A stretch of DNA of 64,000 bases from the NCBI GenBank assembly GCA_023246755.1, contig JAHFHU010000002.1:3702-67701 (forward strand). Direction: 5' to 3'. The notes under the pieces were generated by a model. That model did no database searches and was not told the origin of the DNA. It worked only from the letters and a program-made list of their open reading frames with translations. A program made the position numbers and the translations under genes. The stretch comes from Candidatus Magasanikiibacteriota bacterium (GTDB lineage Bacteria; Patescibacteriota; Patescibacteriia; Magasanikbacterales; 2-02-FULL-50-9b). Positions within the stretch are counted from its first letter, which is position 1. Each line of letters begins with the position of its first letter. Shown piece by piece: positions 3,408 through 60,586 of the stretch.

Positions 3408-3410
3408 AAT

Positions 3411-9383: not shown

Positions 9384-9412
9384 TGACAAAATCACCTCAA
9401 TTTGGTTAAATA
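9384..9412 (+). promoter_or_regulatory. promoter for the 9458 gene (TTGACA-16/17-TTAAAT) plus SD AAGGAAGG
   Basis: cTTGACAaaatcacctcaatttggTTAAATa. A strong SD sits 6 nt before the ATG at 9458. Confidence 0.5.
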
Positions 9413-9457
9413 CAGCTCAACCCAACACGCCCGAAGTGGGCAAAGGAAGGCACATAA

Positions 9458-10240: not shown

Positions 10241-10264
10241 AACCACGGCTCAAACCCATCCCAA

Positions 10265-10307
10265 CCCACCGCATAGAGAATTGTCTCGTGCGGTGGGCTG
10301 TTTTTTT
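10265..10307. terminator. intrinsic terminator (bidirectional: A-run/T-run flanks)
   Basis: CCCACCGCA…TGCGGTGGG 9-bp stem followed by CTGTTTTTTT. Confidence 0.6.
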
Positions 10308-21445: not shown

Positions 21446-21477
21446 TTGTCAATAGTATTTGGCTAATATATTGACAA
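21446..21477. promoter_or_regulatory. inverted-repeat operator TTGTCAATAgTA…TAtaTTGACAA overlapping the -35 of the TrmB-paralog promoter
   Basis: The 9-bp arms TTGTCAATA / TATTGACAA are separated by 14 bp. The right arm contains the -35 TTGACA. Confidence 0.45.
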
Positions 21478-30822: not shown

Positions 30823-32301
30823 ATGACACCACACGAATTATGGCACGCCGTACTCGGCGAGCTCGAATTAACGCTAAGCCAAGCCAATTTTAAGACGTGG
30901 TTCGGACAATCACAGCTGCAGAGCTTTGAACATGGGTCAGTTACGATCACCGTTCCGAATGGGGTTGCAAAGCAATGGCTTGAAAACAAATATCAAAAAC
31001 AGATAATTCACTCCATTGAGCGAATTCTTGAGCAGCCTGTTCAAAAAATAATTTTCAAGATCGAATCGCCCGCAAAACCAAGCCTCGCTGGATTTATTTC
31101 TCAAGAAATTGCGCCGCCAGCACCAACACAAACGCAGCCGCAGCAAACCCAACAAAATCAATACTTTGCACCTACACAACCACAACAAAAATCTCAATTC
31201 ATCACGCGCGCCGATGCGCCGCCATCGATGCAAACAACGGTCACCGAACGCATCGAAGCAAAAAATAAGTTTGGTCTCAACCCGCGTTACACATTTGAAA
31301 CGTTCATTGTTGGCAAAACCAACGAACTCGCGCATGCGGCCGCACAAGCAATCGCAAATCGTCCGGGCGAGGTCTACAATCCGCTCTTCATATATGGTGG
31401 CGTTGGACTCGGAAAAACCCACCTTATCCAAGCGATCGGCAACCGAATCTCCGCAAACGACCCAAACGTTCGAATTCTCTACATCTCATCAGAACGCTTT
31501 ACCAATGAATTTGTTGCTGCAATTCGCTCGGGCAGCATTAAACAATTTAAGGAAACATACCGCGGCATAGACCTTCTCCTCATCGATGACATCCAATTTA
31601 TCGCGGGAAAAACCGAAACGCAAGAGGAGTTTTTTCACACATTTAACGAACTACACCAAGCAAATAAACAGATTGTGATGACCTCCGATCGTCCGCCCAA
31701 GGCAATTCCGGGTCTCGAAGATCGTCTCCGGTCACGTTTTGAGTGGGGCATGATTGCGGATGTTGCGTCACCGGACCTTGAAACACGTGTTGCGATTCTC
31801 GAGTCAAAATGCGCTGAAAAAAAATGCAGCCTTTCAAAAGAGCTTTTGCAAGTAATCGCAACGCTGGTTAAAAGCAACATCCGAGAACTCGAGGGCGCGC
31901 TCAATAAAATTCTCGCACACCATCAACTCCGCGGCGAAAGTCCCTCAGTTGATTCAGTCAAAACGCTTTTATCAAGCTATGATGAGCAATCGTACAGGAA
32001 ATCACTAACCCCAAAGGAGCTCACCACGATTGTTTCGCAATATTTCGACGTGAGTATTGATGAACTCATGAGCCCAAACCGAGAAAAACGACTTGCGTTT
32101 CCTCGTCAAATCATCATGTATCTCTTGCGTGAGGAGTTAAAGTGTTCATTTCCATCGATCGGGCAGGAACTTGGTGGCCGCGACCACACCACCGCGATGC
32201 ACGCGTACGAAAAAATTACGCGCGAGCTTGAAAATGATATGAAGCTCAAACAGGATATCGCGGCCATCCGCCAGCGGTTATACACAATTGCACATGGATA
32301 A
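30823..32301 (+). CDS. dnaA: chromosomal replication initiator protein DnaA
   Basis: AAA+ Walker A GGVGLGKTHL, sensor motifs, and C-terminal DNA-binding domain. Q/P-rich linker. Confidence 0.95.
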   Translation: MTPHELWHAVLGELELTLSQANFKTWFGQSQLQSFEHGSVTITVPNGVAKQWLENKYQKQIIHSIERILEQPVQKIIFKIESPAKPSLAGFISQEIAPPAPTQTQPQQTQQNQYFAPTQPQQKSQFITRADAPPSMQTTVTERIEAKNKFGLNPRYTFETFIVGKTNELAHAAAQAIANRPGEVYNPLFIYGGVGLGKTHLIQAIGNRISANDPNVRILYISSERFTNEFVAAIRSGSIKQFKETYRGIDLLLIDDIQFIAGKTETQEEFFHTFNELHQANKQIVMTSDRPPKAIPGLEDRLRSRFEWGMIADVASPDLETRVAILESKCAEKKCSLSKELLQVIATLVKSNIRELEGALNKILAHHQLRGESPSVDSVKTLLSSYDEQSYRKSLTPKELTTIVSQYFDVSIDELMSPNREKRLAFPRQIIMYLLREELKCSFPSIGQELGGRDHTTAMHAYEKITRELENDMKLKQDIAAIRQRLYTIAHG

Positions 32302-32575: not shown

Positions 32576-33691
32576 ATGAAATTCACGTGTACTAAAGAAA
32601 ATTTTTTACAAGGAATTCAAGCAGTCTCTTCGATTACCGGAAAGCAAGTTCACTTACCGATACTCAACAACATTTTATTATTAGCAGAACCAACAGGTCT
32701 CAAAGCGATCGGAACAAATCTGGAACTTTCTATCGTTGCAACAATTCGTGGTAAGGTTGAGATTGCCGGAACCTTTACTGTTCCTGCTAAGATGCTCGTT
32801 GAATATATTTCGCTGCTTCCGAATGAAGCGCATATCGATTGTGAATTAGATGGCGTTGAGTTGATTTTGAAATCAGGTCGTCAGCGTACGAAAATGAAGG
32901 GCGCGCCTGCGACGGATTTCCCCGCTGTGCCGCCGGTTGAAAAAAACAATGAACTTGTTTTTCCCGCGGATCGTTTAAAGCGCGCGCTTCAACGTGTACT
33001 CATGTCGGTTTCGCACAGTGAAGTTCGACCAGAGCTGCAAGGTGTTCTGCTTTTTTCAGAAAATACGGATCAGTTGCGTGCGACGCTTGCTTCAACCGAT
33101 AGCTACCGTCTTTCGGAAGTGCACGTTGAATTACTCAATCAATCGAGTGTCGCGGTGCGCGTTATTATTCCGCAAAAAGCTGCACAGGAAATCCACAGAC
33201 TTCTCCCCAACTCAAATGAACCGACCGCTCTCGTGCTCGGCGAGGGTCAGATTTCATGTGTGATTGGCGACGTTCATCTTGTTTCGCGACTGATCGATGG
33301 GACTTATCCCGATTATCGACAGATTATCCCCAAGACATGGAATACTGAATTGAAAGCGCCTGTTGAAGAAACGCTCAAGGCGATTAAAGCCGCCTCACTT
33401 TTTGCAACACAGGGTGTGAGCGCGGTTTCGCTCGAGCTCAAACCAGCTTCGGAAATTCTCAACATCACATCCGCCTCAACGCAGGCTGGCGAACACTCGG
33501 CTGACATTTCGGTTGAAGGCGTCGGGGTTGATAATAAAGTTATTTTGAACCATCGTTTTTTGGTTGATGGGCTTTTGTCGGTCGACGATGAGCGGGTAAT
33601 TTTAAAAGTGGTGAATAGTGAGTCGCCGTGTTTGCTGCAACCGGAAAAAACAGATGATTATTTATATATCATCATGCCGATTCGCCAATAA
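32576..33691 (+). CDS. dnaN: DNA polymerase III subunit beta (sliding clamp)
   Basis: Three-domain clamp pattern. Immediately downstream of dnaA. Confidence 0.9.
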   Translation: MKFTCTKENFLQGIQAVSSITGKQVHLPILNNILLLAEPTGLKAIGTNLELSIVATIRGKVEIAGTFTVPAKMLVEYISLLPNEAHIDCELDGVELILKSGRQRTKMKGAPATDFPAVPPVEKNNELVFPADRLKRALQRVLMSVSHSEVRPELQGVLLFSENTDQLRATLASTDSYRLSEVHVELLNQSSVAVRVIIPQKAAQEIHRLLPNSNEPTALVLGEGQISCVIGDVHLVSRLIDGTYPDYRQIIPKTWNTELKAPVEETLKAIKAASLFATQGVSAVSLELKPASEILNITSASTQAGEHSADISVEGVGVDNKVILNHRFLVDGLLSVDDERVILKVVNSESPCLLQPEKTDDYLYIIMPIRQ

Positions 33692-36871: not shown

Positions 36872-36908
36872 TTGCCGGATCCTGCACCATTCGATAGAAT
36901 AGTGCTGC

Positions 36909-36980
<72 letters not shown>

Positions 36981-36985
36981 TTAAA

Positions 36986-37014
36986 GCCCCTCACCTTTGC
37001 GGTGAGGTTTTTTA
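36986..37014 (+). terminator. intrinsic terminator after tRNA-Cys
   Basis: CCTCACC-tttgc-GGTGAGG followed by TTTTTT. Confidence 0.65.
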
Positions 37015-37022
37015 ATTCCCGC

Positions 37023-37051
37023 TTGACACTTTGTGCCTTTCGCATTATAAT
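37023..37051 (+). promoter_or_regulatory. perfect consensus promoter TTGACA-17-TATAAT driving the GC-rich two-gene cassette
   Basis: gcTTGACActttgtgcctttcgcatTATAATctc. Confidence 0.65.
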
Positions 37052-37146
37052 CTCGCCCACTTGTCTGAAGCCGTGCATGCCCGCTGTGGGTTTGTGAGGT
37101 GGATGCTTTTGCGGACCGCTCCGTGTAGCGGCCGTTGGGTGTATTG

Positions 37147-38085
37147 ATGAATTTCAATCAATTTCCTTCGTTCAAGATCGCGAGCCTCATGGTTCATTTC
37201 AATGATCCAAAGTTTGCGGGTACCAGCTTGGTCGCGTCCAACATCGGCGCTGTGCTGATCGATCGGGTGATTTCGGGCAACATCGTTGCGGTTCCACTTG
37301 GCGAGCAGGCCACGAGCGACGACAAGTCTGGTAAGTTTCTGCTCCAAACTGCAGCACAGATCGTTCTCGAGGGCCAGCCGTTCACCCTGATCACGATGAT
37401 CGGTGATCGCCAAATCGGCGCGCCGTCGGATCACCTCTTCGTTGCGGCCTCTGCGTTCGTCAAAGGAACAGAGGGAAACAACCTCTCGGGCGATCACACG
37501 TTGAGCGACGGCCGCGATGGCGTGCAGCACAGCGCGCTGATCGACAAGGACGGTGTTGTCTTTGCAATGCCGGATGTGCGCGACGTTACGCAGTTTGAGT
37601 TCGGCAACACGTCGTACGCGCTTGCGTTGACCGATAACGCGATCAAACTGGTTGTTGGCGTTCGTGCGGGCAAGGTTCGCTACAGCAACGCTGCGTTGTT
37701 GCAATCGGGTGGCGCGTTGAACCTGCGCGCGGTCGCTTCGATGGGCCGCTTGATCGAGGTTGACGGCGAGAAACGGGCTGTTTCGATTCTCAACATGCGC
37801 ACTCAGCCGGACACGGTTTGCGAACAGGGACAGTTCGTGGTTCTCGAGACTCGTCGGATCGGCGCAAACGGTTTCAAGATGCGCATCATCGGGACCATGA
37901 ACATGGACAGCGGCGTGAAAGTCGCCTACGGGCCGGTGACGGGTGATCCGGAGCGCTTTGCGTTCGGTGCGCAGGACGGCGAGATTCAGCTCACCTTGAC
38001 CCGTGTGGTGCTCGCGGAGATGATTGCGGCGGAAAAACTCAGCGCGCAGCCGCAGCCACAGCCACAGCAGCACATCGGTTTTTAG
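37147..38085 (+). CDS. hypothetical beta-rich protein (GC-rich cassette gene 1)
   Basis: 312-aa ORF with balanced composition. The antisense 417-aa ORF is Arg-rich, as expected for an antisense frame in GC-rich DNA. ~60% GC, against ~47% in flanking genes. Confidence 0.5.
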   Translation: MNFNQFPSFKIASLMVHFNDPKFAGTSLVASNIGAVLIDRVISGNIVAVPLGEQATSDDKSGKFLLQTAAQIVLEGQPFTLITMIGDRQIGAPSDHLFVAASAFVKGTEGNNLSGDHTLSDGRDGVQHSALIDKDGVVFAMPDVRDVTQFEFGNTSYALALTDNAIKLVVGVRAGKVRYSNAALLQSGGALNLRAVASMGRLIEVDGEKRAVSILNMRTQPDTVCEQGQFVVLETRRIGANGFKMRIIGTMNMDSGVKVAYGPVTGDPERFAFGAQDGEIQLTLTRVVLAEMIAAEKLSAQPQPQPQQHIGF

Positions 38086-38286
38086 TAGCCTCGGCTCAGG
38101 TCCCACGTCGGCCATCGGCTCAGGTCGCCTCTCCACAAAAGAAGTGCGTAGTCGGCAGGGTTTTCTCTGCTGCACACACTTTTTTTGTGGGAGGTGTTTT
38201 TTGTTTATGCGGGCTATGGACAATTTTGAATATATGCCGTATACTTCCTCCCCCCCCCACTTACATTGTCGACAAGGAGTCGTTTC

Positions 38287-39150
38287 ATGGTATTTCATCG
38301 GGTTCGGTCACTGCTGTTCAGTCAAGTTAGGTCTCGCGAAGAAATGCATTTATTGCCGCTCACCGCGAGTCATTGGCTTGATCCGGCTGAAATTACTGCG
38401 GTTCTCATCGATCTGCATAGTTACAAAGCGTTTTACTCGACTTCCCCCGAGATCGAAATTTCGGCTCGCTTTGCGACGATTCAGTCGCTTCAGCGGATTC
38501 GATTGGTCAGTCAAGGCACCTTGCCGCTGAATCGCGAACAAACGTTTGTGACGATCGGCATGTGGGATCCGTGTTTTGAGATTAATCAAATCGCGCTGGA
38601 GGACGCGATTGGTCTCATCAGCGGCGTGATTTCAGGCGATTCGTTTGCGGGACTTGGACATTTCAATCGTCAAACGACCATGAGCTACTGTTATATAAGT
38701 GGCTATTTGTACCATGAGCGCTGCACGCTTGATTACGGTCGACTTTTTGTTGACTCACCCGCCGAAACACTTGTGCGTCGTAAGCCGAGTGGTTTCGAGA
38801 CTCTGTCTAAAATCGGTGTTTGGTCGCCCGTTCAGATGGGTGAATTGAATTCGGATTTTATCACGGGTTGTTGGCTGATGGGTCGTCAGGAATTTGCCGA
38901 ATCGGGCGGTTCAGATCGCGCGGTGGTGCGTTTGAGCAATGGTCGGATGCGCGGGGTTGATGTTATGTTTCGGTGCGACGCAGGGCTGATTCGGGTTCAT
39001 GAGCTCGGCGGACCACTGAGCTTGCCCGGAATTTATTTGGGGCATCGCGCAGGTCAGCGGAATCAGGATTTGCCGCGGAGCGTTATCAGTGTGCATCGGG
39101 GTGGTCGATTGACGCGTTCAGGCGTGTTTGCGTTGTCGGTTGCCAAGTGA
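38287..39150 (+). CDS. hypothetical protein (GC-rich cassette gene 2)
   Basis: 287-aa ORF starting at ATG preceded by AGGAG. No recognised motif. Confidence 0.45.
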   Translation: MVFHRVRSLLFSQVRSREEMHLLPLTASHWLDPAEITAVLIDLHSYKAFYSTSPEIEISARFATIQSLQRIRLVSQGTLPLNREQTFVTIGMWDPCFEINQIALEDAIGLISGVISGDSFAGLGHFNRQTTMSYCYISGYLYHERCTLDYGRLFVDSPAETLVRRKPSGFETLSKIGVWSPVQMGELNSDFITGCWLMGRQEFAESGGSDRAVVRLSNGRMRGVDVMFRCDAGLIRVHELGGPLSLPGIYLGHRAGQRNQDLPRSVISVHRGGRLTRSGVFALSVAK

Positions 39151-39195
39151 GATCGGTAGGAACTTTGCGCGCGAGACATTTGCGCGCAGTGTGTT

Positions 39196-39238
39196 GGTGT
39201 GGGTCTGCGAACTGCGGGCCCACACCTTCTTTTTTTTA
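39196..39238 (+). terminator. strong intrinsic terminator closing the GC-rich cassette
   Basis: GGTGTGGG…CCCACACC 8-bp GC stem followed by TTCTTTTTTTT. Confidence 0.7.
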
Positions 39239-39265
39239 GCGCGCCCTGCTACACTGGGTTTCGAT

Positions 39266-41980
39266 ATGTCACACAAAATCACGACTTCTGAACCAACGCG
39301 CCGTTTACTAATTTTTGACGGCAATGCGATTATTCATCGGTGTTTTCATGCGATTCCCCCACTCGCGACAAAGGATGGGGTTTTGGTCAACGCCGTGTAC
39401 GGTTTTTTGATGATGTTTTTGAAAGCGGTGAAGGATTTGAAGCCGACGCACGTGGTGGTGACGTTTGATATGGCGGGGCCGACGTTTCGCCACGAGGAGT
39501 TTGCCGAATATAAAGCAACACGCGTCAAGCAAGCGCCGGAGTTGTACGCGCAAATTCCGATTACGAAAGAAGTTTTGGGCGCGATGGGCGTGCAGATTTT
39601 TGAGAAAAAAGGTTTTGAGGCGGATGATGTGATTGGAACGATTGCGACGTTGGCGCGGCACGAACGACCGACGGTTGAGTCGATTATCGTGACCGGTGAT
39701 ATGGATGCGTTGCAGCTCATCAACACGACGACACGCGTGTACACGATGCGCCGCGGAATTTCGGACACGCTGATTTTTGATGCGGCCGCGGTGCGCGAAA
39801 AGTTTGGGTTTGATCCGGAGTTTGTTGTTGATTATAAAGCGTTGCGGGGTGATGTGTCGGATAATATTCCGGGAGTGAAAGGTGTGGGCGAAAAAACGGG
39901 CATGGAGTTGGTGAAAAAGTTTGGGACGATTGAAAAAATGTATGCGGCGCTCGATGTTGGTGAAAAAATTGAGGGTGTGAGCGAGCGGATGCGCGGATTG
40001 CTGGTTGAGAAAAAAGCGGATGCGATTCAAAGTAAGCGACTCGCGACTATTGTGTGTGATGTGCCGCTTGATTTTTCGTTTGGAAAAACCGCGTATGTGC
40101 CGGTTGAGCGCGATGCGATTTTTCCGGTATTTCAAAAGTTGGGATTTTTGTCGTTGCTCCAGCGGTTGCCGAGTTCGACTGCGGGCGTGACCGAAGTTGT
40201 TGAGCCGAAAAAGAAAATACAATTGATTGTTGCGAAAGATGTGGTGAAGACGCGCGCGGTTGTTGAAAAAATGTTGAAGCAGCGCGCGGTTGCGGCATAT
40301 TTGATGAAGCCGGTGCAGCAGGATTTGTTTGGTGCGTCGGCGCCGATGCTTGGGTTTGCGTGGGAGGGCTCGATTGCAGCCGTTGAGGTGAATTTCGAAT
40401 CGCAGTGGGATGAGATTGGTCGATTATTTTTGGATAAAAAATGTGCGCTCGTTGCACATGATGTGAAGCAATTGATGCATGAATTGGCGCAGCATGGAAT
40501 TCGGGTGGGCGGTGAAATTTTTGATGTGATGATTGCGGCATATGTGTTGCAAGCCGGAACGCGTTCGCATGATCTGCCAAATTTGGTGATTACTGTTTTG
40601 GGTGAGGATGTGCCCGTTGTTGAGTGGGCGTATGGCGATCCGACACGTGCGGCGCGCGGGGCTGAACGTGTGTGGCGCGTTGCGGAAAAATTGCGCGTGG
40701 AAATTAGCGAAAAGGGTTTTGCAAAATTATTTGATGAAATTGAAATGCCGCTCGTTGCGCCGCTTGCACGCATGGAACGATATGGGATCGAAGCGGATGG
40801 AAAATATTTGACGAAGCTTGATAAAAAATTGAGTGGCGAGTTGGAAAAAATTTCAAAGCGAATTTATAAAATGGCGGGGCGAGAATTTAATATTGCATCG
40901 CCGCAACAAGTTTCGGAAATTTTATTTGATGTGTTGAAATTGTCCGCTGCGGGAATTAAGCGCGGGAAAACGGGTGGAATTTCAACGGCAGCGGGTGAGC
41001 TCGACAAGTTGCAGGGCACCCATGAAATTATCGATTCGATTTTGGAGCATCGCGAAATTTCGAAATTGTTGAACACATATGTTGAGGCGTTGCCAAAATT
41101 GATTGCGGCGGATGGACGCGTGCACACGACATTCAATCAGGCCGTTGCGGCGACAGGCCGGTTGTCGTCATCGAATCCAAATTTGCAAAATATTCCGGTG
41201 CGCACGGAGTTGGGGCGCGATATTCGGCGTGCGTTTGTTGCGGCGGATGGGTATGAATTGTTGTCGTGCGATTATTCGCAATTTGAGTTGCGTATCGCAG
41301 CACATTTGGCGCGTGATAAAAAACTGATCGAAATTTTTGAGGCGGGGCTCGACGTGCATACGGCAACGGCAGCGGAAATTCACGGCGTGCCGCTTGCGGA
41401 GGTGACTAAGGAGATGCGATTTTCGGCGAAGGAGGTCAATTTTGGGGTGATGTATGGAATGGGTGCGTGGGGTTTGGCCGGCCGCACGGGTTTGTCACGC
41501 GAGGAGGCACGCGCATTTATCGACAAATACATGGCGACGTTTAGCGGGGTTGCGGCGTATCTCGAAGAAACGAAGGTTATTGCGCGCAAACTTGGTTATG
41601 CGGAAACAATGTTTGGACGACGACGCTATTTGCCGGAATTGTCGTCGGGCGTTGCGGCGGTGCGCGCTGCGGGTGAACGCATGGCGGTAAATATGCCGAT
41701 TCAAGGGACGCAGGCGGATATTTTGAAAATTGCGATGATTGAAATTGATGCATTATTGGCGCGTGAGTATGGATTTGGATTCGGGGTGACGGTTGAAGAG
41801 CGCGCGTGTCCAGCGCGAATGCTTTTGCAGGTGCATGATGAGTTGATTTTTGAAATTAAAAAAGGGCTGGCCGCGGAATTGGCGCCACGGATTTTGGAAA
41901 TTATGTCGGGTGTGGTGAAGTTGGTGGTGCCGGTTAAAGTTGATTTTGAGGTTGGAGGGAATTGGGCGGATTTGGATTAA
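39266..41980 (+). CDS. polA: DNA polymerase I (5'-3' exonuclease, 3'-5' exo-like and polymerase domains)
   Basis: N-terminal FEN domain (LLIFDGNAIIHRCFHA). Pol A motifs DYSQFELRI, RRAAKEVNFGVMYG-like, and QVHDELIFE. Confidence 0.95.
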   Translation: MSHKITTSEPTRRLLIFDGNAIIHRCFHAIPPLATKDGVLVNAVYGFLMMFLKAVKDLKPTHVVVTFDMAGPTFRHEEFAEYKATRVKQAPELYAQIPITKEVLGAMGVQIFEKKGFEADDVIGTIATLARHERPTVESIIVTGDMDALQLINTTTRVYTMRRGISDTLIFDAAAVREKFGFDPEFVVDYKALRGDVSDNIPGVKGVGEKTGMELVKKFGTIEKMYAALDVGEKIEGVSERMRGLLVEKKADAIQSKRLATIVCDVPLDFSFGKTAYVPVERDAIFPVFQKLGFLSLLQRLPSSTAGVTEVVEPKKKIQLIVAKDVVKTRAVVEKMLKQRAVAAYLMKPVQQDLFGASAPMLGFAWEGSIAAVEVNFESQWDEIGRLFLDKKCALVAHDVKQLMHELAQHGIRVGGEIFDVMIAAYVLQAGTRSHDLPNLVITVLGEDVPVVEWAYGDPTRAARGAERVWRVAEKLRVEISEKGFAKLFDEIEMPLVAPLARMERYGIEADGKYLTKLDKKLSGELEKISKRIYKMAGREFNIASPQQVSEILFDVLKLSAAGIKRGKTGGISTAAGELDKLQGTHEIIDSILEHREISKLLNTYVEALPKLIAADGRVHTTFNQAVAATGRLSSSNPNLQNIPVRTELGRDIRRAFVAADGYELLSCDYSQFELRIAAHLARDKKLIEIFEAGLDVHTATAAEIHGVPLAEVTKEMRFSAKEVNFGVMYGMGAWGLAGRTGLSREEARAFIDKYMATFSGVAAYLEETKVIARKLGYAETMFGRRRYLPELSSGVAAVRAAGERMAVNMPIQGTQADILKIAMIEIDALLAREYGFGFGVTVEERACPARMLLQVHDELIFEIKKGLAAELAPRILEIMSGVVKLVVPVKVDFEVGGNWADLD

Positions 41981-43003: not shown

Positions 43004-44872
43004 ATGAATATTAGGGTATTTCCCCGCATGTTGAGCTTTGTTTTTGCGTTTTTGCTCAGCATACCTTTTTTTGTTGCCAATGATTTTTTGTTACCATTAT
43101 CGACTATTCGTGTGACTGCGTGGGCTGTAGGTATCATCGCATTGTTCGTCATATTTTTATTTTGGATATTCCGTAGTGCGACCGTGCGGATTGAGCTGAA
43201 CAGTGTTTTACAGCATCCGGTTGTGATTTGTTATGCGGCTTTTCTTGCTTGGTTGACGGTGCGGTCAGCATTTGTTTGGTCTGAATATACGTGGTGGGGC
43301 ACGTGGGCTCGTGGCGATGGTTTGTGGATGCAGTGGTCATGGCTAATCGTGTTAATCATTGCTGTTATTTGGCATCGCGTATCGCCCATAGTTTTTTCAA
43401 AAATTTTGATGTATGCGGTATCTATTTTAATAACAACCACCATAATTTCACGATTTGGTGCCACAGGTGTTCAATCAGATCGGTGGTCCGGTTTTGTTGG
43501 AAACCCACTTTATTTCTCCGCCTTGGTTTTATTTATTCCATGGTTTGCGTACGCGGCGTCTGCGCAGATAATTCATAAGACACACAGAAAATTTTTTATC
43601 ACGAGCATGCTAATTGTTACGGGTCTGCTTCTGTATTTTTCTGGTTCACGTGGTGCATTAGTCGCTGCTGCTGCCGGTGTTTTTATTTGGGCCATTGCTC
43701 GAGTTGCAAATCAAAAATACCGGGTAATCATTTTTGTGTTTATGACCCTGTATGTTTTTTTTGGGTATAAGTATTTTTTGATTGCTGATCGAAGTAGTAC
43801 GATTTATTCTCGTCTTGCATTGTGGAGTGCTGCACGCGATGAATTCAAAAATAGGCCAATCATTGGCTATGGATTTGGTGAACATCTCAACGTAATTTCG
43901 CATAACCTAATTCCATTATTTCGGGTTATGCCCAGTGAACAAGTGACAGATACTACGCACTCATTATTCATTGATGTTGCACTCGCGGGTGGCTTAGTCG
44001 CGCTCACGCTATTAGCTCTCTGGATATTTTTTTCTGTTCGATCGATTAATGCGCTTGGTATAGATGATCGTGGTGTTGCGCTGGCGACATTTTTTGCGTA
44101 CTTATTTTTTGGTATCTCTTTTATTTGGAGTCCGTGGTCGCAGATATTTTTATTATTTATATTGGTACCGATTATAGCAAAAACACTGAACATTACTAAA
44201 AATAATAATACATCATTTATATTTTTTCTGGTCATGATTATCATTTTTTGTTCATCCGTGTTTGTTATTTTGACGTTACCTGTTCAGGCGGCTGTTGGTT
44301 ACCGTGCAGCAATTAATCCACAACAGATGAATGATGCGACTGGGATGATGCCGTTCAGTCGTGATCGCGATGGCATTTTGGCGCGCCAGTTTGCAAAATT
44401 TTTGGATGCACAAAATGAGGGTGTTATTGGTCAAGATCTATTGGCGCGTTTTGAGCTGCGTGCCCATGAGCGTGAAACACTTGTAGCAGACCGTCACGCA
44501 TTTGCAGTTGTTTTTTTTAAGCTTGCGCAGAAGTCTGCGGCGCATCAAAATTTGTATGCGTTAGCTGAAGAGTCGTTGCGCGCTTGTCTTGTTCAAAGTA
44601 TCGATCGTCCCGCATCTGTATTTCAGCTCGCGATCGTTCTTTTTTCCGAGGGCAGGTTTACAGAGTCACTAGATCTTTTGAAAAAATTTCGAGATATACA
44701 CGCAGATATTCCAGAGGCATTTATCTTTTATGGACTACTTGCTGATGTATCAGGCAAAAGTGATGAAGCTCATGTTGCAGCACAGCAAGCAGTTGTGCTT
44801 CGACCACTTGATGCGGGTTGGGACGATAATTATTTGTTGTGGCTCAAGGATATATTGGGTCGGCATCGTTAA
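43004..44872 (+). CDS. O-antigen ligase/Wzy_C-family membrane protein with C-terminal TPR-like domain
   Basis: About 12 TM segments. LLLYFSGSRGALVAAAAGVFIWA matches the Wzy_C conserved loop. The last ~190 aa are soluble and helical. Confidence 0.6.
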   Translation: MNIRVFPRMLSFVFAFLLSIPFFVANDFLLPLSTIRVTAWAVGIIALFVIFLFWIFRSATVRIELNSVLQHPVVICYAAFLAWLTVRSAFVWSEYTWWGTWARGDGLWMQWSWLIVLIIAVIWHRVSPIVFSKILMYAVSILITTTIISRFGATGVQSDRWSGFVGNPLYFSALVLFIPWFAYAASAQIIHKTHRKFFITSMLIVTGLLLYFSGSRGALVAAAAGVFIWAIARVANQKYRVIIFVFMTLYVFFGYKYFLIADRSSTIYSRLALWSAARDEFKNRPIIGYGFGEHLNVISHNLIPLFRVMPSEQVTDTTHSLFIDVALAGGLVALTLLALWIFFSVRSINALGIDDRGVALATFFAYLFFGISFIWSPWSQIFLLFILVPIIAKTLNITKNNNTSFIFFLVMIIIFCSSVFVILTLPVQAAVGYRAAINPQQMNDATGMMPFSRDRDGILARQFAKFLDAQNEGVIGQDLLARFELRAHERETLVADRHAFAVVFFKLAQKSAAHQNLYALAEESLRACLVQSIDRPASVFQLAIVLFSEGRFTESLDLLKKFRDIHADIPEAFIFYGLLADVSGKSDEAHVAAQQAVVLRPLDAGWDDNYLLWLKDILGRHR

Positions 44873-45016
44873 CGAATAACATGTGATTAATTTTCTCGTT
44901 ACGGTTCTTATGGTACAATGATGAGTGCTGTGGTGGTATTTTATTTTGTAATCACTCACACAGCGTTTGATTATTCGAAACCGTAGTGGAGGGTAGGATC
45001 TAACTTACTAAAAAAT

Positions 45017-45628
45017 ATGAAAAATACACACTTCGTTTTTTTGTTCGCGACACTATTATTCGCTGGTTCTGGATGTGGGGATTCGGCACCGGCCACAACA
45101 GCTCCGTCTGAAAAAGCGTCCGCTTCACAGCAGGCACAGAATCCGACGCCAACAGCTCAAATCGCGCAACGCATGCCTCGATACACGCATACCAAGTATG
45201 GTTTCTCGATTGAACCGCCGCTCAATTGGAAGGTTGATGAATCTAAGCCGGGCCTGGCACTCATGATTTCGAGTGATCATGCAGATGAGGCATCTGCAAA
45301 ATTTAATTATCGTGCAAATATTAATGTGCAGGTTACGCAACTAACCAATGGTTCGGTTGCTGAAACCGCAAAAAAATTCGTGAGCTCATTTGGAAGTTCG
45401 TGGAATTCGGTTAAGGTTCTCGAAGAGGGGCCGGCAAAAGTTGGTGACGCCGAGGCATACAAGGTTGTCGTTGATTTGGCTGGTGACGATTATTCTCCAC
45501 GCGGAGAGTGCTTTGTTGTGCGAGCGGATGCGATTGATGGCGCGGTGGTATGTGGATACGCTTTGGACTCAAAGTGGGCTGAAAATAAGGACATTCTTGA
45601 GTCGTCTCTCGCAACGTTCAAACCATAA
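45017..45628 (+). CDS. putative lipoprotein
   Basis: Signal peptide with lipobox-like LFAGSGC. Soluble beta-rich domain. Confidence 0.45.
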   Translation: MKNTHFVFLFATLLFAGSGCGDSAPATTAPSEKASASQQAQNPTPTAQIAQRMPRYTHTKYGFSIEPPLNWKVDESKPGLALMISSDHADEASAKFNYRANINVQVTQLTNGSVAETAKKFVSSFGSSWNSVKVLEEGPAKVGDAEAYKVVVDLAGDDYSPRGECFVVRADAIDGAVVCGYALDSKWAENKDILESSLATFKP

Positions 45629-45703: not shown

Positions 45704-45964
45704 ATGCCAAATTTGGCTCAAGCAAAAAAAGCACTTCGTAAATCGAAAAAAGCGTTTATTCGCAATGAGGCGATTCGCGATGGTGTTCGTAAATTAAAAA
45801 AAGCCGCTCGTGTCGCGGTTGACGGGAAAGATAAGTCAGGCGCGGCAAAAGCAGCGCACGAATTACAAGTCGCTGTCGATAAGGCAGCAAAGCGCGGAAT
45901 TCTTCATAAGAATAAAGCGGCTCGTCTCAAATCACGTTTGGCAAAAAAGATTCGTTCACTCTAA
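45704..45964 (+). CDS. rpsT: 30S ribosomal protein S20
   Basis: MPNLAQAKKALRKSKK…RLKSRLAKKIRSL, a typical S20. Confidence 0.9.
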   Translation: MPNLAQAKKALRKSKKAFIRNEAIRDGVRKLKKAARVAVDGKDKSGAAKAAHELQVAVDKAAKRGILHKNKAARLKSRLAKKIRSL

Positions 45965-53950: not shown

Positions 53951-54023
53951 GGGCCCTTAGCTCATTTGGTAGAGCGCTTCCATGGCATGGAAGAGGTGGC
54001 GAGTTCGAGCCTCGCAGGGTCCA
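53951..54023 (+). tRNA. tRNA-Ala (anticodon GGC)
   Basis: Manual cloverleaf: acceptor GGGCCCT/AGGGTCC with the G3·U70 alanine identity pair, anticodon stem CTTCC/GGAAG with loop ATGGCAT, T-arm GCGAG-TTCGAGC-CTCGC, discriminator A. Confidence 0.7.
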
Positions 54024-54052: not shown

Positions 54053-54081
54053 TTGACAAAACACGTTTTTTGTGCTATTAT
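54053..54081 (+). promoter_or_regulatory. promoter TTGACA-17-TATTAT upstream of the QG-rich repeat protein gene
   Basis: cgTTGACAaaacacgttttttgtgcTATTATag. Confidence 0.5.
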
Positions 54082-54141: not shown

Positions 54142-55677
54142 ATGCAGTTCCTTACTAAGTGGTGCAAACATATGTGCACCGTACCCGCACGAGTATATTT
54201 CGTAGCATTTGTTTTTGCCCTCTCGACCGTTTACGTGTCGCAAGAGGTTGGCTCTGTTTTTGCGCAGAGCGTTGGTTCGGGTCCGATGCCGCCGCAGCCG
54301 ATGGGACCGCCACCAAATAACCAGATGGGTCCAAACCAGATGGGCGGGCAACAGGCCGGTGGTCCGCAAGGCGGCCAGTTCGGCAAAATGGATCAGGGCC
54401 AATTTGGTGGTCAGCCACAACAGCAACAGCCGATGCAGCAAGGCCCCAATCAAATGATGCCGCCGTTGAATGGCGGGCAGGGAATGCCACCAAGTCAAGG
54501 CGGTAAACCAGATTTTAATGGTGGACAGATGCAGTTTGGTCAACAGCCAATGCAAAAGATGGGAAAATTTGACAACAGCCAAATGGGTCCAAACCAGATG
54601 GGCGGGCAACAGGCCGGTGGTCCGCAAGGCGGCCAGTTCGGCAAAATGGATCAGGGCCAGTTTGGTGGTCAGCCACAACAGCAACAGCCGATGCAACCAC
54701 AACAGTTTCAGAACGATCAAAAACAGGGCGGCGTCATGGAAAAAGGACAGCACGAAGATTCAGACGCGCAGCAATCAAAAATGGAAGCGCAGCGCGCAGA
54801 GCAGATGAAAAAACAGTTTGCTCAAATGAAAAAGCAGTTTGGTCAGATGGGTTCTATGTTGAAAAAAGTTGAAGCGCGCGTAGCTGCTGTAGAAAAGCAG
54901 GGCGTAAAAGCTCCAACCGAACTTGCGGAAGCTCTCGCAAATGCAAAAATCGCGCTCGCAACGGTGCAGAACGCACAATCATTAGAAGATGATGGTGTGC
55001 AAGATGCGATGCAAGCGTTGCAAGAGAGCGGTCACACCTTGCAACAAGGTATGCAGCAACTTGAGATGCTTGGGCAAATGCCACAAATGTTAAAACAAGC
55101 TGCGTCAGAAATTAAAAAACTCGAAGCGTCATACACACGTTCACAGAAATTAGTGAGTCGCGCGAAAATCGATGTGTCAAGTCAGATGGCCGAATTTCGT
55201 AAGGCAATTGACACGATTAAAGCTGGCTACGCCAACGCGCAGCAACTCATCCAGAGTGGCGATGCGGAAGGCGCGAGCGAAGCGCTTAAAACAGATGTGT
55301 GGGATAATATGCAAGACGCATATCAGTATCCCGGCATGATCGAAGCGTTGAGCAATGTAAAAAAATATCTTACCAACTTCGACAAATTCATTGCGCGTGC
55401 CGCAAAGAGTAAGGCCGTTGGCGGAGACAGCGAAGCGAGCGCCGCGCTTCAGGACATGCGAACGAAAGTCGTTGAACTCAAGCAGTCAGCGACGCAAGCA
55501 ACAACAGATCCCGAAGAATTGAAATCCGCGATTAACGACATCTTTGAATTGCAATCAACGATTCAAGGTGTGTTGGGCACGAGCAATCCAATGAGTGCGC
55601 AATCGCGACAGAACGGAAATTCATCCTTTGACTTTTCAGCTTTTGGACAGGTGAACGATTCACAAGGGCAGCGGTAA
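54142..55677 (+). CDS. secreted low-complexity Q/G/P/M-rich repeat protein with coiled-coil C-terminal half
   Basis: Signal-peptide-like segment after an alternative ATG at 54172. A 38-aa unit (MGPNQMGGQQAGGPQGGQFGKMDQGQFGGQPQQQQPMQ) is duplicated. The C-terminal half is helical and K/E/Q-rich. Confidence 0.55.
   Translation: MQFLTKWCKHMCTVPARVYFVAFVFALSTVYVSQEVGSVFAQSVGSGPMPPQPMGPPPNNQMGPNQMGGQQAGGPQGGQFGKMDQGQFGGQPQQQQPMQQGPNQMMPPLNGGQGMPPSQGGKPDFNGGQMQFGQQPMQKMGKFDNSQMGPNQMGGQQAGGPQGGQFGKMDQGQFGGQPQQQQPMQPQQFQNDQKQGGVMEKGQHEDSDAQQSKMEAQRAEQMKKQFAQMKKQFGQMGSMLKKVEARVAAVEKQGVKAPTELAEALANAKIALATVQNAQSLEDDGVQDAMQALQESGHTLQQGMQQLEMLGQMPQMLKQAASEIKKLEASYTRSQKLVSRAKIDVSSQMAEFRKAIDTIKAGYANAQQLIQSGDAEGASEALKTDVWDNMQDAYQYPGMIEALSNVKKYLTNFDKFIARAAKSKAVGGDSEASAALQDMRTKVVELKQSATQATTDPEELKSAINDIFELQSTIQGVLGTSNPMSAQSRQNGNSSFDFSAFGQVNDSQGQR
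54325..54438 (+). repeat. intragenic direct repeat copy 1 (~114 nt)
   Basis: Near-identical (1-2 mismatches) to 54583-54696. Confidence 0.7.
54583..54696 (+). repeat. intragenic direct repeat copy 2 (~114 nt)
   Basis: Near-identical to 54325-54438. A recent in-frame duplication. Confidence 0.7.
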
Positions 55678-57146: not shown

Positions 57147-57552
57147 ATAAAATTTTGATAGAAAATATACATCCGCCGATGCCGTCGAATAATAAATCGA
57201 ACATGGTGTCGGAGTTGTTCAGCTGGAAGTGCGTGTTGAAAAAATAGTCATGTAAGAATTCGTACCACTCCCACGCAACGCCAAAAAGCATGACGAATGA
57301 GATGAGCAAAACAATTTGTCCAAGCAGCGGAATTTTTTTCCACCAAATCAACGACGGCGTTGCGGAAACATATTGATGGAACATGTGGGCGATCGCGAGG
57401 CCGCCGAGTCCATGCATGAGATGATCGATGCGCGGTTCAAATGCATAGATACGATCCATGAATGGCGTTTGGTTAATTAAAAACAGCGCGACGGGCGCCC
57501 ACATGATAGAAATTATTTTTTTCATAGATTTTTTGATATACTGAATTCCCAT
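57124..57552 (-). CDS. small integral membrane protein (VanZ-like?)
   Basis: Four hydrophobic segments. Weak resemblance to VanZ-like proteins. Confidence 0.4.
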   Translation of the reverse strand: MGIQYIKKSMKKIISIMWAPVALFLINQTPFMDRIYAFEPRIDHLMHGLGGLAIAHMFHQYVSATPSLIWWKKIPLLGQIVLLISFVMLFGVAWEWYEFLHDYFFNTHFQLNNSDTMFDLLFDGIGGCIFSIKILYGEKRTK

Positions 57553-58690
57553 GACGAGTGAAACTTTTTTTGAAAAATTATCTGATGCTCTGTTGCAACC
57601 GCCCGCGCACGCGTGGGATGGTCCGCAACCTGGACTTTCCGCGCAAGCTGATGAGCGTTGTCGTTATTATTTTTCGCAAAACACAGGACGACTGGAGCGT
57701 ATTGTACAGCATGATGCGACGGGTGCGCCAGCCGTGCAAGTTCATTATCGACATGTTGACTCCGGCGAAATTTCCGGTCAATCGCGGGCGCGCGCATTTG
57801 AAATTGAGCGATGGAATGGTGACGCGTTTGTTTCCGAAGGGGTGGTCGCACAAGACGGCCGTGTGATTCGGACGCACGCGCTTCCGCGCACGATGCTCAC
57901 CGAGCATGGAAAACAGGAGCCTATCCCGCGCGAGTCGGATATTTTTATCACACCATCCGGCGAGGTTGTTCGACTTTCGTCGCAAGGGACTTTTTTCGCA
58001 TCACCACGCGCTGCATATTTGGGTCGCGCAACAATTTTTAACGCAGCGCATCCGTTTGTCGTTAAAACACCATCGGGTGAGCATGAACTTTCCGTTGATT
58101 GTCGGGACACGGTGATTGATGTTGAAGGGAATGTGTTTGAATTTAAGTCGGAAGGTTTGGTTGCGATCGGAGAGCTTGTCATTCCCGAGTTAGATCACGC
58201 GGCGGATCAGGTGGGCACGCAGCATCTCGTTCATGATTTTTTTACGCTTTCGCTTGCGGATAACGCAGTTACCGTCGATTTTCATGACGCGAAAATTAAT
58301 GAAATGCTGGAGCGGCCGTTGCATCCGATTGGCGGGCGACACCCGTTTGTTCACGATGCGACGCCGGAACTTGTTGATATACACGGCAGCACGCTCGGTG
58401 AGGAGCGGTTACGCGAAGTTGAGCGCGCGGCGCTTGAGCTCGGGCTTGTGAGTTTTGCGCTTCGGAATGAGACGCGACGGCCTGCGCGCGCGGCGTTTTT
58501 GAAAGCGCAGCACGCGCTCGAAGATCGGTTGTGGCATCGGATTGATCGGCTCGAGGAGCTCGTCGGGATGGCGCGGCACACGCTCGTGAACCCGACGCAA
58601 ATTCGTGCGTGGATTGACCGCGCAGCCGAACATCCGCACGAAGCTTTGCTCGCGCTCAAAGCACATCAATCGTATGTTGCAGCTCGATAA
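57551..58690 (+). CDS. hypothetical protein (GC-rich module, ~62% GC)
   Basis: 379-aa ORF with no recognised motif. Composition is clearly distinct from its neighbours. Confidence 0.45.
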   Translation: MTSETFFEKLSDALLQPPAHAWDGPQPGLSAQADERCRYYFSQNTGRLERIVQHDATGAPAVQVHYRHVDSGEISGQSRARAFEIERWNGDAFVSEGVVAQDGRVIRTHALPRTMLTEHGKQEPIPRESDIFITPSGEVVRLSSQGTFFASPRAAYLGRATIFNAAHPFVVKTPSGEHELSVDCRDTVIDVEGNVFEFKSEGLVAIGELVIPELDHAADQVGTQHLVHDFFTLSLADNAVTVDFHDAKINEMLERPLHPIGGRHPFVHDATPELVDIHGSTLGEERLREVERAALELGLVSFALRNETRRPARAAFLKAQHALEDRLWHRIDRLEELVGMARHTLVNPTQIRAWIDRAAEHPHEALLALKAHQSYVAAR

Positions 58691-59639
58691 ACTCGCGGCG
58701 GAATTTTTGGACCATCTTGAGATCGAAAAAAATCGTTCGCTCCTCACGCGGCGGAATTACGAGTTATATTTGCGGCGATTTGTTGATTTTATCAAGCGTG
58801 CGTACAAAAAAAATAATCCCGACGCGATCACATTTGACGCGGTGCGTGCCTATCGGTTGTGGCTGCATCGGTTTGTCGACGCGCAGGGGAATGCGTTGTC
58901 AGCAGCGACACAAAATTATCATCTGATTGCGCTGCGGTCGCTTTTGAAATATTTATCAAAGCGCGAAATTAAATCACTTGCGGCCGAGCGCGTTGAGTTG
59001 GGCAAAATGCCGGAGCGGCACGTTTCGTTTTTATCCGGTGACGAACTTGCCCGGTTTTTGAACGCGCCGCTGCACGCGGATCAAAGCGAGTCATTGGCCG
59101 CGCGCGACAAAGCGATTCTTGAGTTGTTGTTTTCGACGGGTTTGCGTGTGTCGGAGCTCGTTGGTTTGAAGCGCGACGATGTTGAGTTGTCACGCGGAGA
59201 AATTGGCGTTGTTGGAAAGGGGCGCAAACGGCGTGTGGTGTTTGTATCCGATGAGGCGCGCCAGTGGGTGAAAAAATATTTGGGGCTGCGGCGCGACATG
59301 AGCCCATTTTTGTTCGCGAATCAGGATCGTGCGGCGGCAACACGCGAGAAGAAAAAATCGGGGAGCGCTGAAGCTGTTGAAGGTTTGACGCCACGCTCGG
59401 TGCAACGCATGGTTGAAAAATATGCGCGCGAGGCGGGGATTATGAAGACCGTGACGCCGCACGTGCTCCGCCATTCATTCGCGACGGATTTGTTGCACAA
59501 TGGCGCGGACATCCGCTCCGTGCAAGTCATGCTCGGCCACTCGTCAATCACGACGACGCAAGTTTACACACACGTCACGGATCCACAGCTCAAAAAAATT
59601 CATCAGAAATTTCATCATCGGGGGCAGGCGGGGGATTAA
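58674..59639 (+). CDS. tyrosine site-specific recombinase (XerC/XerD/integrase family)
   Basis: The catalytic region contains the C-terminal RHSFATDLL…GADIRSVQVMLGHSSITTTQVYTHV with the conserved R-H-R-Y residues. N-terminal core-binding domain. GC-rich like the upstream gene. Confidence 0.85.
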   Translation: MLQLDKLAAEFLDHLEIEKNRSLLTRRNYELYLRRFVDFIKRAYKKNNPDAITFDAVRAYRLWLHRFVDAQGNALSAATQNYHLIALRSLLKYLSKREIKSLAAERVELGKMPERHVSFLSGDELARFLNAPLHADQSESLAARDKAILELLFSTGLRVSELVGLKRDDVELSRGEIGVVGKGRKRRVVFVSDEARQWVKKYLGLRRDMSPFLFANQDRAAATREKKKSGSAEAVEGLTPRSVQRMVEKYAREAGIMKTVTPHVLRHSFATDLLHNGADIRSVQVMLGHSSITTTQVYTHVTDPQLKKIHQKFHHRGQAGD

Positions 59640-59704
59640 ATATCGGTTTTCCACAATTCATGCACATTGACAAAAGTTTCAGGCTATGGAACCCAGTGGG
59701 GTAT

Positions 59705-60169
59705 ATGTCTGAAAAAAATTTTGATGCGTGGTTTGTGCTTAAAAAAAGAGTGCATGACAGACATGCTTTTTCATCGCGTCCGGGTGGTGATCGATTTTTT
59801 CAGGTGCGCGATGTATGGTTTTGTTCAATTGGTGAAAATATTGGCCACGAACAGGATGGAAAGCACACGTACTTTGAGCGCCCTGTTTTGATTGTTCAAA
59901 AATTTAATCACGATATGTTTTGGGGTGTTCCACTCACCAGCAATCTTAAACAAGGCCGGTATTGCCTTGAGATTTTTTTTGCTGGTCGATACAGCTCAGC
60001 CATGCATTCGCAGTTGCGTTTATGGGACGCGCGCAGATTGTTGCGAAAAATCGATCGTATTTCTGAGAGTGATCACCGGCAGATTACAGAAAAAATAATT
60101 TCTATTTTAAAATTAAGCGGCTCCCCGCATGAGCGAGGAGCCTCGGAGCCCGAAGGCGTAGTGAAGTAA
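59705..60169 (+). CDS. MazF/PemK-like endoribonuclease toxin-family protein, paralog 1 (with C-terminal extension)
   Basis: FQVRDVWFCSIGENIGHEQDGK…ERPVLIVQK…GVPLTS follows the PemK/MazF/Kid pattern GEIWxVxLDPxxGxEQxGxRPxLIV…PxTS. Confidence 0.5.
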   Translation: MSEKNFDAWFVLKKRVHDRHAFSSRPGGDRFFQVRDVWFCSIGENIGHEQDGKHTYFERPVLIVQKFNHDMFWGVPLTSNLKQGRYCLEIFFAGRYSSAMHSQLRLWDARRLLRKIDRISESDHRQITEKIISILKLSGSPHERGASEPEGVVK

Positions 60170-60199
60170 CTATAGAATATTTTAAATTAGCTGTCAAAT

Positions 60200-60586
60200 A
60201 TGTCTGAAAAAAATTTTGATGCGTGGAACGAATACAAAAAAGAACTCGACGCGCACAGACGAAACCTTATTTTTCGGCCGGGTGAAGTTTGGTTTTGCTC
60301 AATCGGTGAAAATATTGGGCGCGAACAAAATGGGAAAAATAATTTGTTTGAGCGACCGATTTTAATCATAAAAAAATTCAATCGTGAGATGTTTTGGGGT
60401 GCGCCACTCACCTCGAAAGAGCATAGTGGCTCTTGGTATTATAATTTTTTTTACGACGGCATTTTAGAAACTGTTATTCTGGTCCAACTTCGTTTAGTTG
60501 ATATTGGCCGATTACAACGAAAATTGTTTCGGATAAATGTGGTTCACCGACTTGCGATTCGTGAAAAACTCAAGAACTTGTTATAA
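60200..60586 (+). CDS. MazF/PemK-like endoribonuclease toxin-family protein, paralog 2
   Basis: RPGEVWFCSIGENIGREQNGK…ERPILIIKK…GAPLTS. N-terminal 20 aa nearly identical to paralog 1 (MSEKNFDAW…). Confidence 0.5.
   Translation: MSEKNFDAWNEYKKELDAHRRNLIFRPGEVWFCSIGENIGREQNGKNNLFERPILIIKKFNREMFWGAPLTSKEHSGSWYYNFFYDGILETVILVQLRLVDIGRLQRKLFRINVVHRLAIREKLKNLL

Follow-up and report, generated by a model that had tools for sequence, protein, structure and literature searches.

The tRNA-Cys/polA interval of a Candidatus Magasanikbacteria genome: an orphan GC-rich gene beside a lineage-specific neighbour of polA, and a possible site of gene turnover

Organization of the tRNA-Cys/polA Interval

The interval studied here lies between the tRNA-Cys gene and polA in a DNA stretch of 64,000 nt (the window: forward-strand positions 3,702-67,701 of contig JAHFHU010000002.1, assembly GCA_023246755.1), which the best matches of its polA assign to Candidatus Magasanikbacteria, in the candidate phyla radiation (CPR). 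Two open reading frames (ORFs) of the + strand occupy it: ORF1, of 312 aa counted from an ATG (37147-38085), and ORF2, of 287 aa (38287-39150); polA starts at an ATG at 39266 on the same strand. A preliminary description had given both lengths correctly and had taken the pair for a horizontally acquired, self-contained GC-rich cassette. The analysis presented below leads to another reading, held at about even confidence: the interval would be an old gene-turnover slot, in which ORF1, a species-specific orphan, stands next to a separate and vertically inherited ORF2.

The local gene order is dnaA, dnaN, PBP1A, tRNA-Cys, ORF1, ORF2, polA, holA. The ORFs at 30823-32301 and 32576-33691 are equivalent to dnaA and dnaN by size and gene order, a naming that rests on the Pfam-annotated equivalents in a related genome, L001 (GCA_039738915.1). 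Because these genes lie at 30.8-33.7 kb and the cumulative GC skew of the window reaches its minimum near 32.5-33 kb, the locus is probably situated within about 5 kb of the replication origin, oriC. Downstream of the origin the + strand is strongly G-skewed, the third codon positions of polA having G at 0.42 and C at 0.12; ORF1 lacks the skew that surrounds it, with G and C both at 0.36.

The tRNA-Cys (GCA) gene begins 37 nt after the end of PBP1A and was found at 36909-36980 (+) both by ARAGORN and by Rfam (tRNA, 68.8 bits). It is preceded by a promoter-like site, TTGCCG-17-TAGAAT (36872-36900, +; promoter scan), whose -10 region is kept in relatives, and is followed by an intrinsic terminator (36989-37013, +) made of a hairpin at 36989-37007, with a 7-bp stem containing 5 GC pairs, and a T-run. 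The tRNA and its terminator were thus correctly recognized at the outset, and the hairpin is present at the equivalent place in the related genomes L001, L007, L008 and L004. The promoter scan also reproduced the perfect promoter, of sigma-70 type, that had been noticed before ORF1, TTGACA-17-TATAAT (12/12; 37023-37051, +), which begins 43 nt past the end of tRNA-Cys; a TTGACA -35 element lies directly 3' of the tRNA terminator in L001, L007 and L008 as well. The window contains 10 promoters scoring at least 11/12, where 1.3 would be expected; nearly all stand just before genes, and another 12/12 promoter occurs at 21471. The ORF1 promoter is therefore genuine, yet typical of the host genome.

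ORF1 is followed by a terminator of its own (38126-38202, +), consisting of a long hairpin formed by an inverted repeat (38126-38196) and a T6 run, with a predicted RNA folding energy of -58 kcal/mol (z -5.5); a hairpin and T-run likewise follow the corresponding gene in L001 and L007. ORF2 has in turn its own promoter, TGGACA-17-TATACT (38217-38245, +; promoter scan), which is kept as TTGACA-17-TATACT in L001 and L007 and as TAGACA-17-TATACT in L004, and a Shine-Dalgarno sequence, AAGGAG, at 38274-38279 (+). Its terminator (39196-39238, +) is the strong GC-rich stem that the preliminary description had placed before polA: a 14-bp stem with 9 GC pairs at 39196-39226, followed by a T-run. This terminator and the polA promoter overlap in the upstream portion of the latter, whose -10 element, TACACT, is located at 39250-39255, and the overlapping arrangement, CTTCTTTTTTTT...CTGCTACACT...ATG, is kept in L001, L007 and L008. 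The 5' untranslated regions fold unremarkably (z -0.8, +0.3 and -2.4) and are not alignable between genomes. The complete promoter-to-terminator unit earlier proposed for the pair is not upheld, because a terminator belonging to ORF1 and a promoter belonging to ORF2 lie between the two genes, which from their sequence signals appear to be two separate transcription units. Wherever the gene concerned is present in the compared genomes, the layout recurs: tRNA promoter and terminator, TTGACA element, terminator of the first gene, ORF2 promoter, and overlap of the ORF2 terminator with the polA promoter.

The region is no assembly chimera, since independent assemblies match the window across both of its junctions, PBP1A/tRNA/ORF1 in the contigs L005 and L006 and ORF2/polA in L002 and L003. 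Where the ORF1 terminator meets ORF2, the only bridge outside the window is the 30 nt shared by two contigs (the end of L005, at 38152, and the start of L002, at 38122). It was observed that these four short contigs, all from the same organism, stop at or near the two terminator hairpins (38110-38175 and 39213-39372), probably through a drop of coverage at GC-rich hairpins; strain heterogeneity at the slot boundaries may be another source of these ends.

Gene Order in Related Lineages

Five lineages were compared: that of the window, L001, L007 (CALRDW010000006), L008 (CALQYY010000019) and L004, a 1.5-kb contig. The window, L001 and L007 have in common the order PBP1A, tRNA-Cys, a gene in the first position after the tRNA (hereafter slot 1), an ORF2 homolog, polA and holA. 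In L008 the tRNA-Cys is followed by one gene of 288 aa, rich in G and C at third codon positions (GC3), and then by polA, ORF2 not being detected. L004 (1-1471) contains the 3' end of tRNA-Cys with its terminator, a promoter, an ORF2 homolog and polA, and is devoid of a slot-1 gene. Because L004 passes from tRNA-Cys straight to ORF2 and polA, the presence of the slot-1 gene varies between lineages. A direct adjacency of tRNA-Cys and polA in relatives, which the preliminary description had suggested looking for, is thus borne out in part: the linkage recurs and L004 has nothing in slot 1, but ORF2 is kept before polA in the same contig.

Beyond the Magasanikbacteria, tRNA-Cys lies upstream of polA in Uhrbacteria (L009) and Falkowbacteria (L010) too, where polA is 47% identical. 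The gap in L009 (2419-4168) holds a DUF3800 gene matching PDC-M04A of PADLOC (E 1.7e-16), and that in L010 holds no clear gene. As both of these groups have the same linkage, it is old, and the content of the gap varies.

Identity across the compared genomes amounts to 67-74% for PBP1A, 65-83% for the first 515 residues of polA, and 27-56% for ORF2. Look-ups of proteins exactly matching polA and PBP1A of the window gave no result. Other copies from the L007 species are essentially identical, with no single-nucleotide polymorphism (SNP) in the slot-1 gene or ORF2 and two in PBP1A.

In L007 an additional ORF of 317 aa (2455-3408), matching no family, was observed between PBP1A and tRNA-Cys. As the same space measures only 37 nt in the window, both sides of the tRNA appear to be plastic.

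ORF1 and the Other Slot-1 Genes

ORF1 has 58.1% GC and a GC3 of 0.725, the window mean being 47.6% GC; it forms the highest 750-nt GC peak of the window (0.604, z 2.9) and its lowest tetranucleotide correlation (z -3.3). The compositional break formerly attributed to the pair consequently holds for ORF1 and fails for ORF2, whose 52.1% GC falls within the 38-56% range of the window genes.

The predicted protein of ORF1 is soluble, with a mass of 33 kDa, a pI of 5.8 and no transmembrane segment, and carries near its C-terminus the sequence QPQPQPQQ, in which the PQPQPQ tail mentioned in the preliminary description is recognized. Its composition suggests a beta-rich protein. Searches of 5.8e9 clustered proteins with word-indexed HMMER and of 1.84e9 representatives with full phmmer recovered only its own annotated copy (P0001). 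There was no significant match in Pfam, PHROGs, PADLOC or NCBIfam, and none among PDB sequences, IMG/VR contigs, GenBank phages or PLSDB plasmids. The best PHROGs match, to a Hoc-like head decoration family, is not significant (E 0.14), and a single-sequence AlphaFold2 (AF2) model, with a predicted local distance difference test score (pLDDT) of 36, is unusable for fold search; the earlier idea of a capsid or encapsulin thus finds no significant sequence match and no usable model behind it. Internal repeats were looked for and not found. On these searches ORF1 is an orphan gene, having no relatives in anything searched; as judged from sequence features, it most likely is expressed and yields a soluble accessory protein of the cytoplasm. 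Population variation amounts to one SNP in the window species, too few for a ratio of nonsynonymous to synonymous substitution rates (dN/dS).

The four slot-1 genes (ORF1 in the window, L001 9019-9828, L007 3762-4721 and L008 5042-5908) encode 269-319 aa on the same + strand, in the position after tRNA-Cys, and each is monocistronic with its own promoter and terminator. Gly, Val, Asp and Thr are abundant in their products, which are alike in amino-acid composition and lack transmembrane segments; the window and L001 also resemble each other at the base of the terminator stem. The sequences themselves gave only noise when compared with each other and with ORF2 by BLASTP, Smith-Waterman alignment with shuffles, termini-only comparison, BLOSUM45 semi-global alignment and hhalign. 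The alignment z scores of slot-1 pairs, local and global, did not exceed 3.5 and were mostly at or below 1, against 11-94 for pairs of ORF2 proteins. A C-terminal pattern seen by eye (h-x-h-G-P ... V-V-x-A-K) had no statistical support and was dropped. The slot-1 genes of the relatives had no match among viral contigs; in the large protein libraries, ORF1 of the window was the only slot-1 gene used as query.

What the four genes do share, besides position, is a codon usage unlike that of their surroundings. GC3 amounts to 0.725, 0.83, 0.634 and 0.64, against 0.35-0.54 in neighbouring genes, and C occupies 0.31-0.49 of third positions, against 0.11-0.14 in polA. In the slot-1 genes of the window and L001, 74-81% of Lys, Glu and Gln codons end in G, compared with 35-43% in the neighbours and 30% in the ribosomal protein gene S20, and the same two genes prefer CTC/CTG, GGC and CGC, codons ending in G or C being favoured in general. 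The bias does not follow the optimal codons of the host, because S20 and the neighbours use far fewer G-ending codons. Translational selection as its sole cause was rejected, S20 favouring A-ending and ORF1 G-ending codons for Lys, Glu and Gln.

ORF2, a Neighbour of polA

The composition of ORF2 (52.1% GC, GC3 0.53) is near to that of polA (50% GC) and PBP1A (48%) and is ordinary for the genome. Like ORF1, it matched no family in Pfam, PHROGs, PADLOC or NCBIfam, so that the absence of a recognizable family noted in the preliminary description stands for both genes. Its own family consists of four proteins (P0002-P0005), all from Magasanikbacteria and all encoded directly upstream of polA; the profile search gained just one further member, P0005. 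The members score E 1e-98 to 1e-142 against the family profile, the similarity being full-length. The motifs SFAG, ET..RR and PGI..G.R are kept in all four proteins, and SFAGLGHF, DYGRLFV and CWL.GRQ in the three closest ones.

The predicted model of ORF2 is all-beta over residues 20-240, and the beta-propeller and WD40-like folds are known folds that were set beside it for comparison. No viral or phage match was found for ORF2. A metagenome match (L087) was discarded as spurious, as it sits inside an unrelated GC-rich gene. Taken together, the sequence comparisons describe ORF2 as a separately transcribed, vertically inherited, fast-evolving and lineage-specific protein of predicted all-beta structure, apparently outside any mobile unit. 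With its homologs it makes up a small, lineage-specific family in close linkage with polA, and it is tempting to speculate that its product has to do with DNA polymerase I or with nucleic acid.

Sequences Resembling tRNA-Cys

No tRNA-derived direct repeat was found between 36981 and 39286 of the window, the best local score being 19 (z 0.4) when shuffles reach 26, and no integrase, recombinase or transposase gene was found in or beside ORF1-ORF2; the nearest Phage_integrase gene (58605-59639) is about 19 kb away. In L004 and L008, copies resembling the 3' end of tRNA-Cys occur downstream of the tRNA. A partial tRNA-Cys duplicate in L009 (2509-2544; local alignment z 6.6), ahead of the DUF3800/PDC-M04A gene, looks like an integration footprint.

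L004 (about 62-175) and L008 (about 4885-4982) have in common an element of about 110 nt in the spacer that separates the tRNA-Cys terminator from the promoter after it. The T-loop and acceptor 3' segment of tRNA-Cys is copied at both ends of this element, in opposite orientations, and the two ends pair into an outer stem. Inside it both genomes form a perfect hairpin, yet the sequences forming this hairpin are wholly different (GAACTGAC/GTCAGTTC vs GGAACGCGC/GCGCGTTCC). Minus-strand folds of the element gave z -2.9 and -3.5, and it had no Rfam match. A degenerate version is present in L001 (8820-8860), and the window retains at most 9 nt, AATTCCCGC (37012-37020), ending 3 nt before the -35 element of ORF1, as a possible remnant. 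The element may be a relic of an attachment (att) site or of recombination at the tRNA, or else a small tRNA-derived structured element.

Origin of the Slot-1 Genes

The recurrence of sequence-unrelated, GC3-rich genes at one position is the single unusual feature of the locus. In the explanation that we place first, at even confidence, slot 1 would have been filled in each genome by a different and unrelated GC3-rich gene, or by none, single-gene cassettes having been repeatedly replaced by lateral transfer, or gained and lost, while the DNA on either side was conserved. On the left this would be the tRNA-Cys terminator with the promoter region and on the right the ORF2/polA side; cassettes may have been replaced by homologous recombination across these two flanks, or the tRNA may in the past have been the target of recombination. 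Gene turnover is favoured because the presence of the genes varies in L004 and L008; because a GC3 and codon bias unlike the genome would, by amelioration theory, be expected to decay after a single acquisition before the lineages split; because pieces similar to the tRNA 3' end are found past the tRNA in relatives; and because an unrelated accessory gene fills the equivalent gap in Uhrbacteria.

Several points weigh against turnover. The slot-1 genes agree in position, strand, size class, composition and layout, which also fits one ancestor diverged beyond recognition, and the adjacent ORF2 already diverges very fast (27-56% identity). The searches revealed neither a donor nor a relative for any of the slot-1 genes, the large libraries having been queried with ORF1 of the window alone, and the window genes have no att repeat, integrase or transposase beside them. 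The five lineages compared include none close enough to catch a replacement between near-identical flanks. Finally, the raised GC3 could be kept by a local force, GC-biased gene conversion or selection, and not reflect a foreign origin.

The foremost rival, which we consider possible but clearly less probable than turnover, follows from these points: the slot-1 genes would be true orthologs that descended vertically and diverged beyond recognition, perhaps by diversifying selection, ORF1 then being an old native gene. Such an ancestry would account for the common slot, strand and length class (269-319 aa), for each gene having a TTGACA-17 promoter just past the tRNA terminator and a terminator to itself, for the similar Gly-, Val-, Asp- and Thr-rich composition without transmembrane segments, and for the resemblance of the terminator stem base between the window and L001. 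ORF2 next door is down to 27-41% identity while polA holds 65-83%, and undetectable homology within conserved micro-synteny is a documented route to orphan genes (PMC7028367). A GC3 of 0.63-0.83 with non-host codon usage is, however, unexpected if a native gene drifts fast in a genome whose GC content is 44-48%, since prokaryotic orphans usually have a GC content close to or below that of conserved genes or of the genome (PMC11293555). Moreover, the gene is wholly missing from L004, and no pairwise signal emerged even with BLOSUM45 global alignment. GC-biased gene conversion or a similar local force could reconcile the raised GC3 with vertical divergence.

A more specific proposal, to which we would give little credence, makes the space after tRNA-Cys a dedicated exchange site for single cassettes. 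With a fixed promoter and terminator, genes of about 300 codons, GC3-rich and unrelated or hyper-diverged, would be swapped there from a lineage pool; the palindrome of about 110 nt in L004 and L008 would be the recombination site or its relic, GC3 would be held up by GC-biased gene conversion, and the products might be fast-evolving immunity or host-interaction proteins of episymbionts.

The module of the preliminary description, in which ORF1 and ORF2 together were recently integrated, site-specifically, at the 3' end of tRNA-Cys, is very unlikely. The pair does adjoin a tRNA, ORF1 is atypical in composition, and neither protein belongs to a known family; but homologs of ORF2 with typical composition occupy the same position in L001, L004 and L007, the two genes have separate promoters and terminators, no tRNA-derived direct repeat or integrase lies in or beside them, and no match to phages, viruses or plasmids came up. 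What survives of the claim of horizontal acquisition is a variable, atypical and orphan ORF1 beside a tRNA; the syntenic ORF2 of four lineages and the lack of an integrase or repeat speak against a module, and the searches of viral and phage collections with both genes, and of plasmids with ORF1, yielded no match supporting a mobile origin.

The Coding Strand of ORF1

It remains to consider whether ORF1 is a gene at all. Its start is uncertain among a TTG at 37135 and ATGs at 37147 and 37189, the public annotation using the last (298 aa), and an ORF of 417 aa runs antisense to it (37045-38298, -), overlapping it in codon register. Both in the window and in L001 a long ORF can be read on either strand, the gene called in the public annotation of L001 is that of the minus strand, and the two strands of L001 score equally under the window codon table.

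The GC content of the three codon positions of ORF1 is nevertheless 0.61/0.41/0.73, a strong three-base periodicity that is met again in the slot-1 gene of L001 (0.53/0.34/0.83). By a coding log-odds score built from the window's own genes, the ORF1 frame reached +0.28 and the antisense frame -0.07, with +0.33 for PBP1A and +0.40 for polA. The antisense frame is open because ORF1 contains no TTA, CTA or TCA codons, A being present at only 0.07 of third positions; where A-ending codons are commoner the antisense ORF is smaller, with 238 aa in L007 and less than 100 aa in L008. Its product is rich in Arg and His, and the antisense ORFs lack similarity between genomes. The sole SNP against another assembly (38031 G>A) is synonymous in ORF1 but not in the antisense ORF, whose protein it alters. 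In the window and in its relatives the promoter, the ribosome-binding site and the terminators are oriented along the + strand, a Shine-Dalgarno sequence GGAG or GGAGA preceding the slot-1 genes of L001, L007 and L008.

These features indicate that ORF1 is a real monocistronic protein-coding gene of the + strand, and the antisense ORF is judged to be a by-product of codon bias and no gene. That the minus-strand ORF should be the true gene, or the locus a GC-rich structured RNA, is hardly credible, the RNA reading being disfavoured because the periodicity is strong and no Rfam family matched.

Relation to Known Systems

The locus resembles tRNA-associated genomic islands in having variable DNA directly 3' of a tRNA, an atypical ORF1, a content that differs between relatives, and fragments resembling the tRNA 3' end in L004, L008 and L009. 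It differs from them in that the window has neither integrase nor flanking direct repeat, and what varies is no more than one gene, about 1 kb long, whose promoter and terminator are of native type. Foreign DNA is usually AT-richer than its host, whereas this unit is GC-richer than the genome, and the slot is old and conserved in position. Judged by composition together with patchiness, ORF1 is atypical and unrelated or absent in relatives, and ORF2 has typical GC content and conserved synteny.

Variable hotspots that are flanked by core genes and collect accessory or defence genes belong to the pangenomes of E. coli, Pseudomonas and Vibrio. Here tRNA-Cys with PBP1A on one side and polA on the other flank unrelated genes, among them the candidate defence DUF3800 gene of Uhrbacteria; on the other hand, there is one gene per genome, no PADLOC match, and the comparison covers five species-level lineages and not a strain-level pangenome. 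From the hotspot position and the DUF3800 gene in the Uhrbacteria gap, ORF1 possibly has a conflict-related role, in defence or host interaction. Among known anti-phage systems, PADLOC matched neither ORF1, ORF2 nor the slot-1 genes of the relatives.

With the orphans described within conserved micro-synteny (PMC7028367, PMC11293555) the slot-1 genes share equivalent positions, conserved neighbours and a lack of detectable similarity; they differ in a GC3 strongly above the genome and in that one lineage lost, or never had, the gene. Integron cassettes come to mind through the single ORF per unit, the uniform orientation, the interchangeable content and the structured element after the ORF. 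In contrast to such cassettes, ORF1 has its own 12/12 promoter, its hairpin is a terminator with a T-run and without an RYYYAAC/GTTRRRY core, and no IntI, attI or cassette array was found.

Should turnover prove true, the locus would be a compact and well-bounded example of how small CPR genomes exchange or reinvent single genes, beside a tRNA and near the origin. Very small CPR genomes carry few obvious mobile elements. With its flanks, promoter and terminator conserved and its coding sequence not, the locus offers a clean test case for the origin of orphans by replacement as opposed to divergence; its practical impact is limited for now.

Other Observations in the Window

A layout like that of tRNA-Cys and ORF1 occurs at a tRNA-Ala (53951-54023), which is followed by an 11/12 promoter (54053-54081) and an ORF of 511 aa (54142-55677) without Pfam match.

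The region 57551-60586 contains an ORF of 379 aa, relatively rich in GC (54%) and without family match, adjoining a gene for a tyrosine recombinase (XerC/D or phage-integrase type; 58605-59639), beside which lie two PemK/MazF-like toxin genes (59660-60169 and 60200-60586). This region, about 19 kb from the ORF1 locus, could be a real mobile or addiction module.

On the minus strand, an ORF of 287 aa at 9406-10269 shows an odd GC pattern over its codon positions and is probably spurious. The ORF of 260 aa that overlaps it on the + strand (9458-10240) ends in a helix-hairpin-helix which, by eye, is like the C-terminal domain of the RNA polymerase alpha subunit.

Between holA and S20 (about 45704-45960), the window has two extra genes (43004-45628), one for a 622-aa protein similar to O-antigen ligases (Wzy_C) and one ORF of 203 aa. 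In L001, rpsT follows holA directly, and in the L007 species an ORF of 202 aa stands after S20; by this comparison of gene order, the holA-S20 interval appears as another local difference in gene content.

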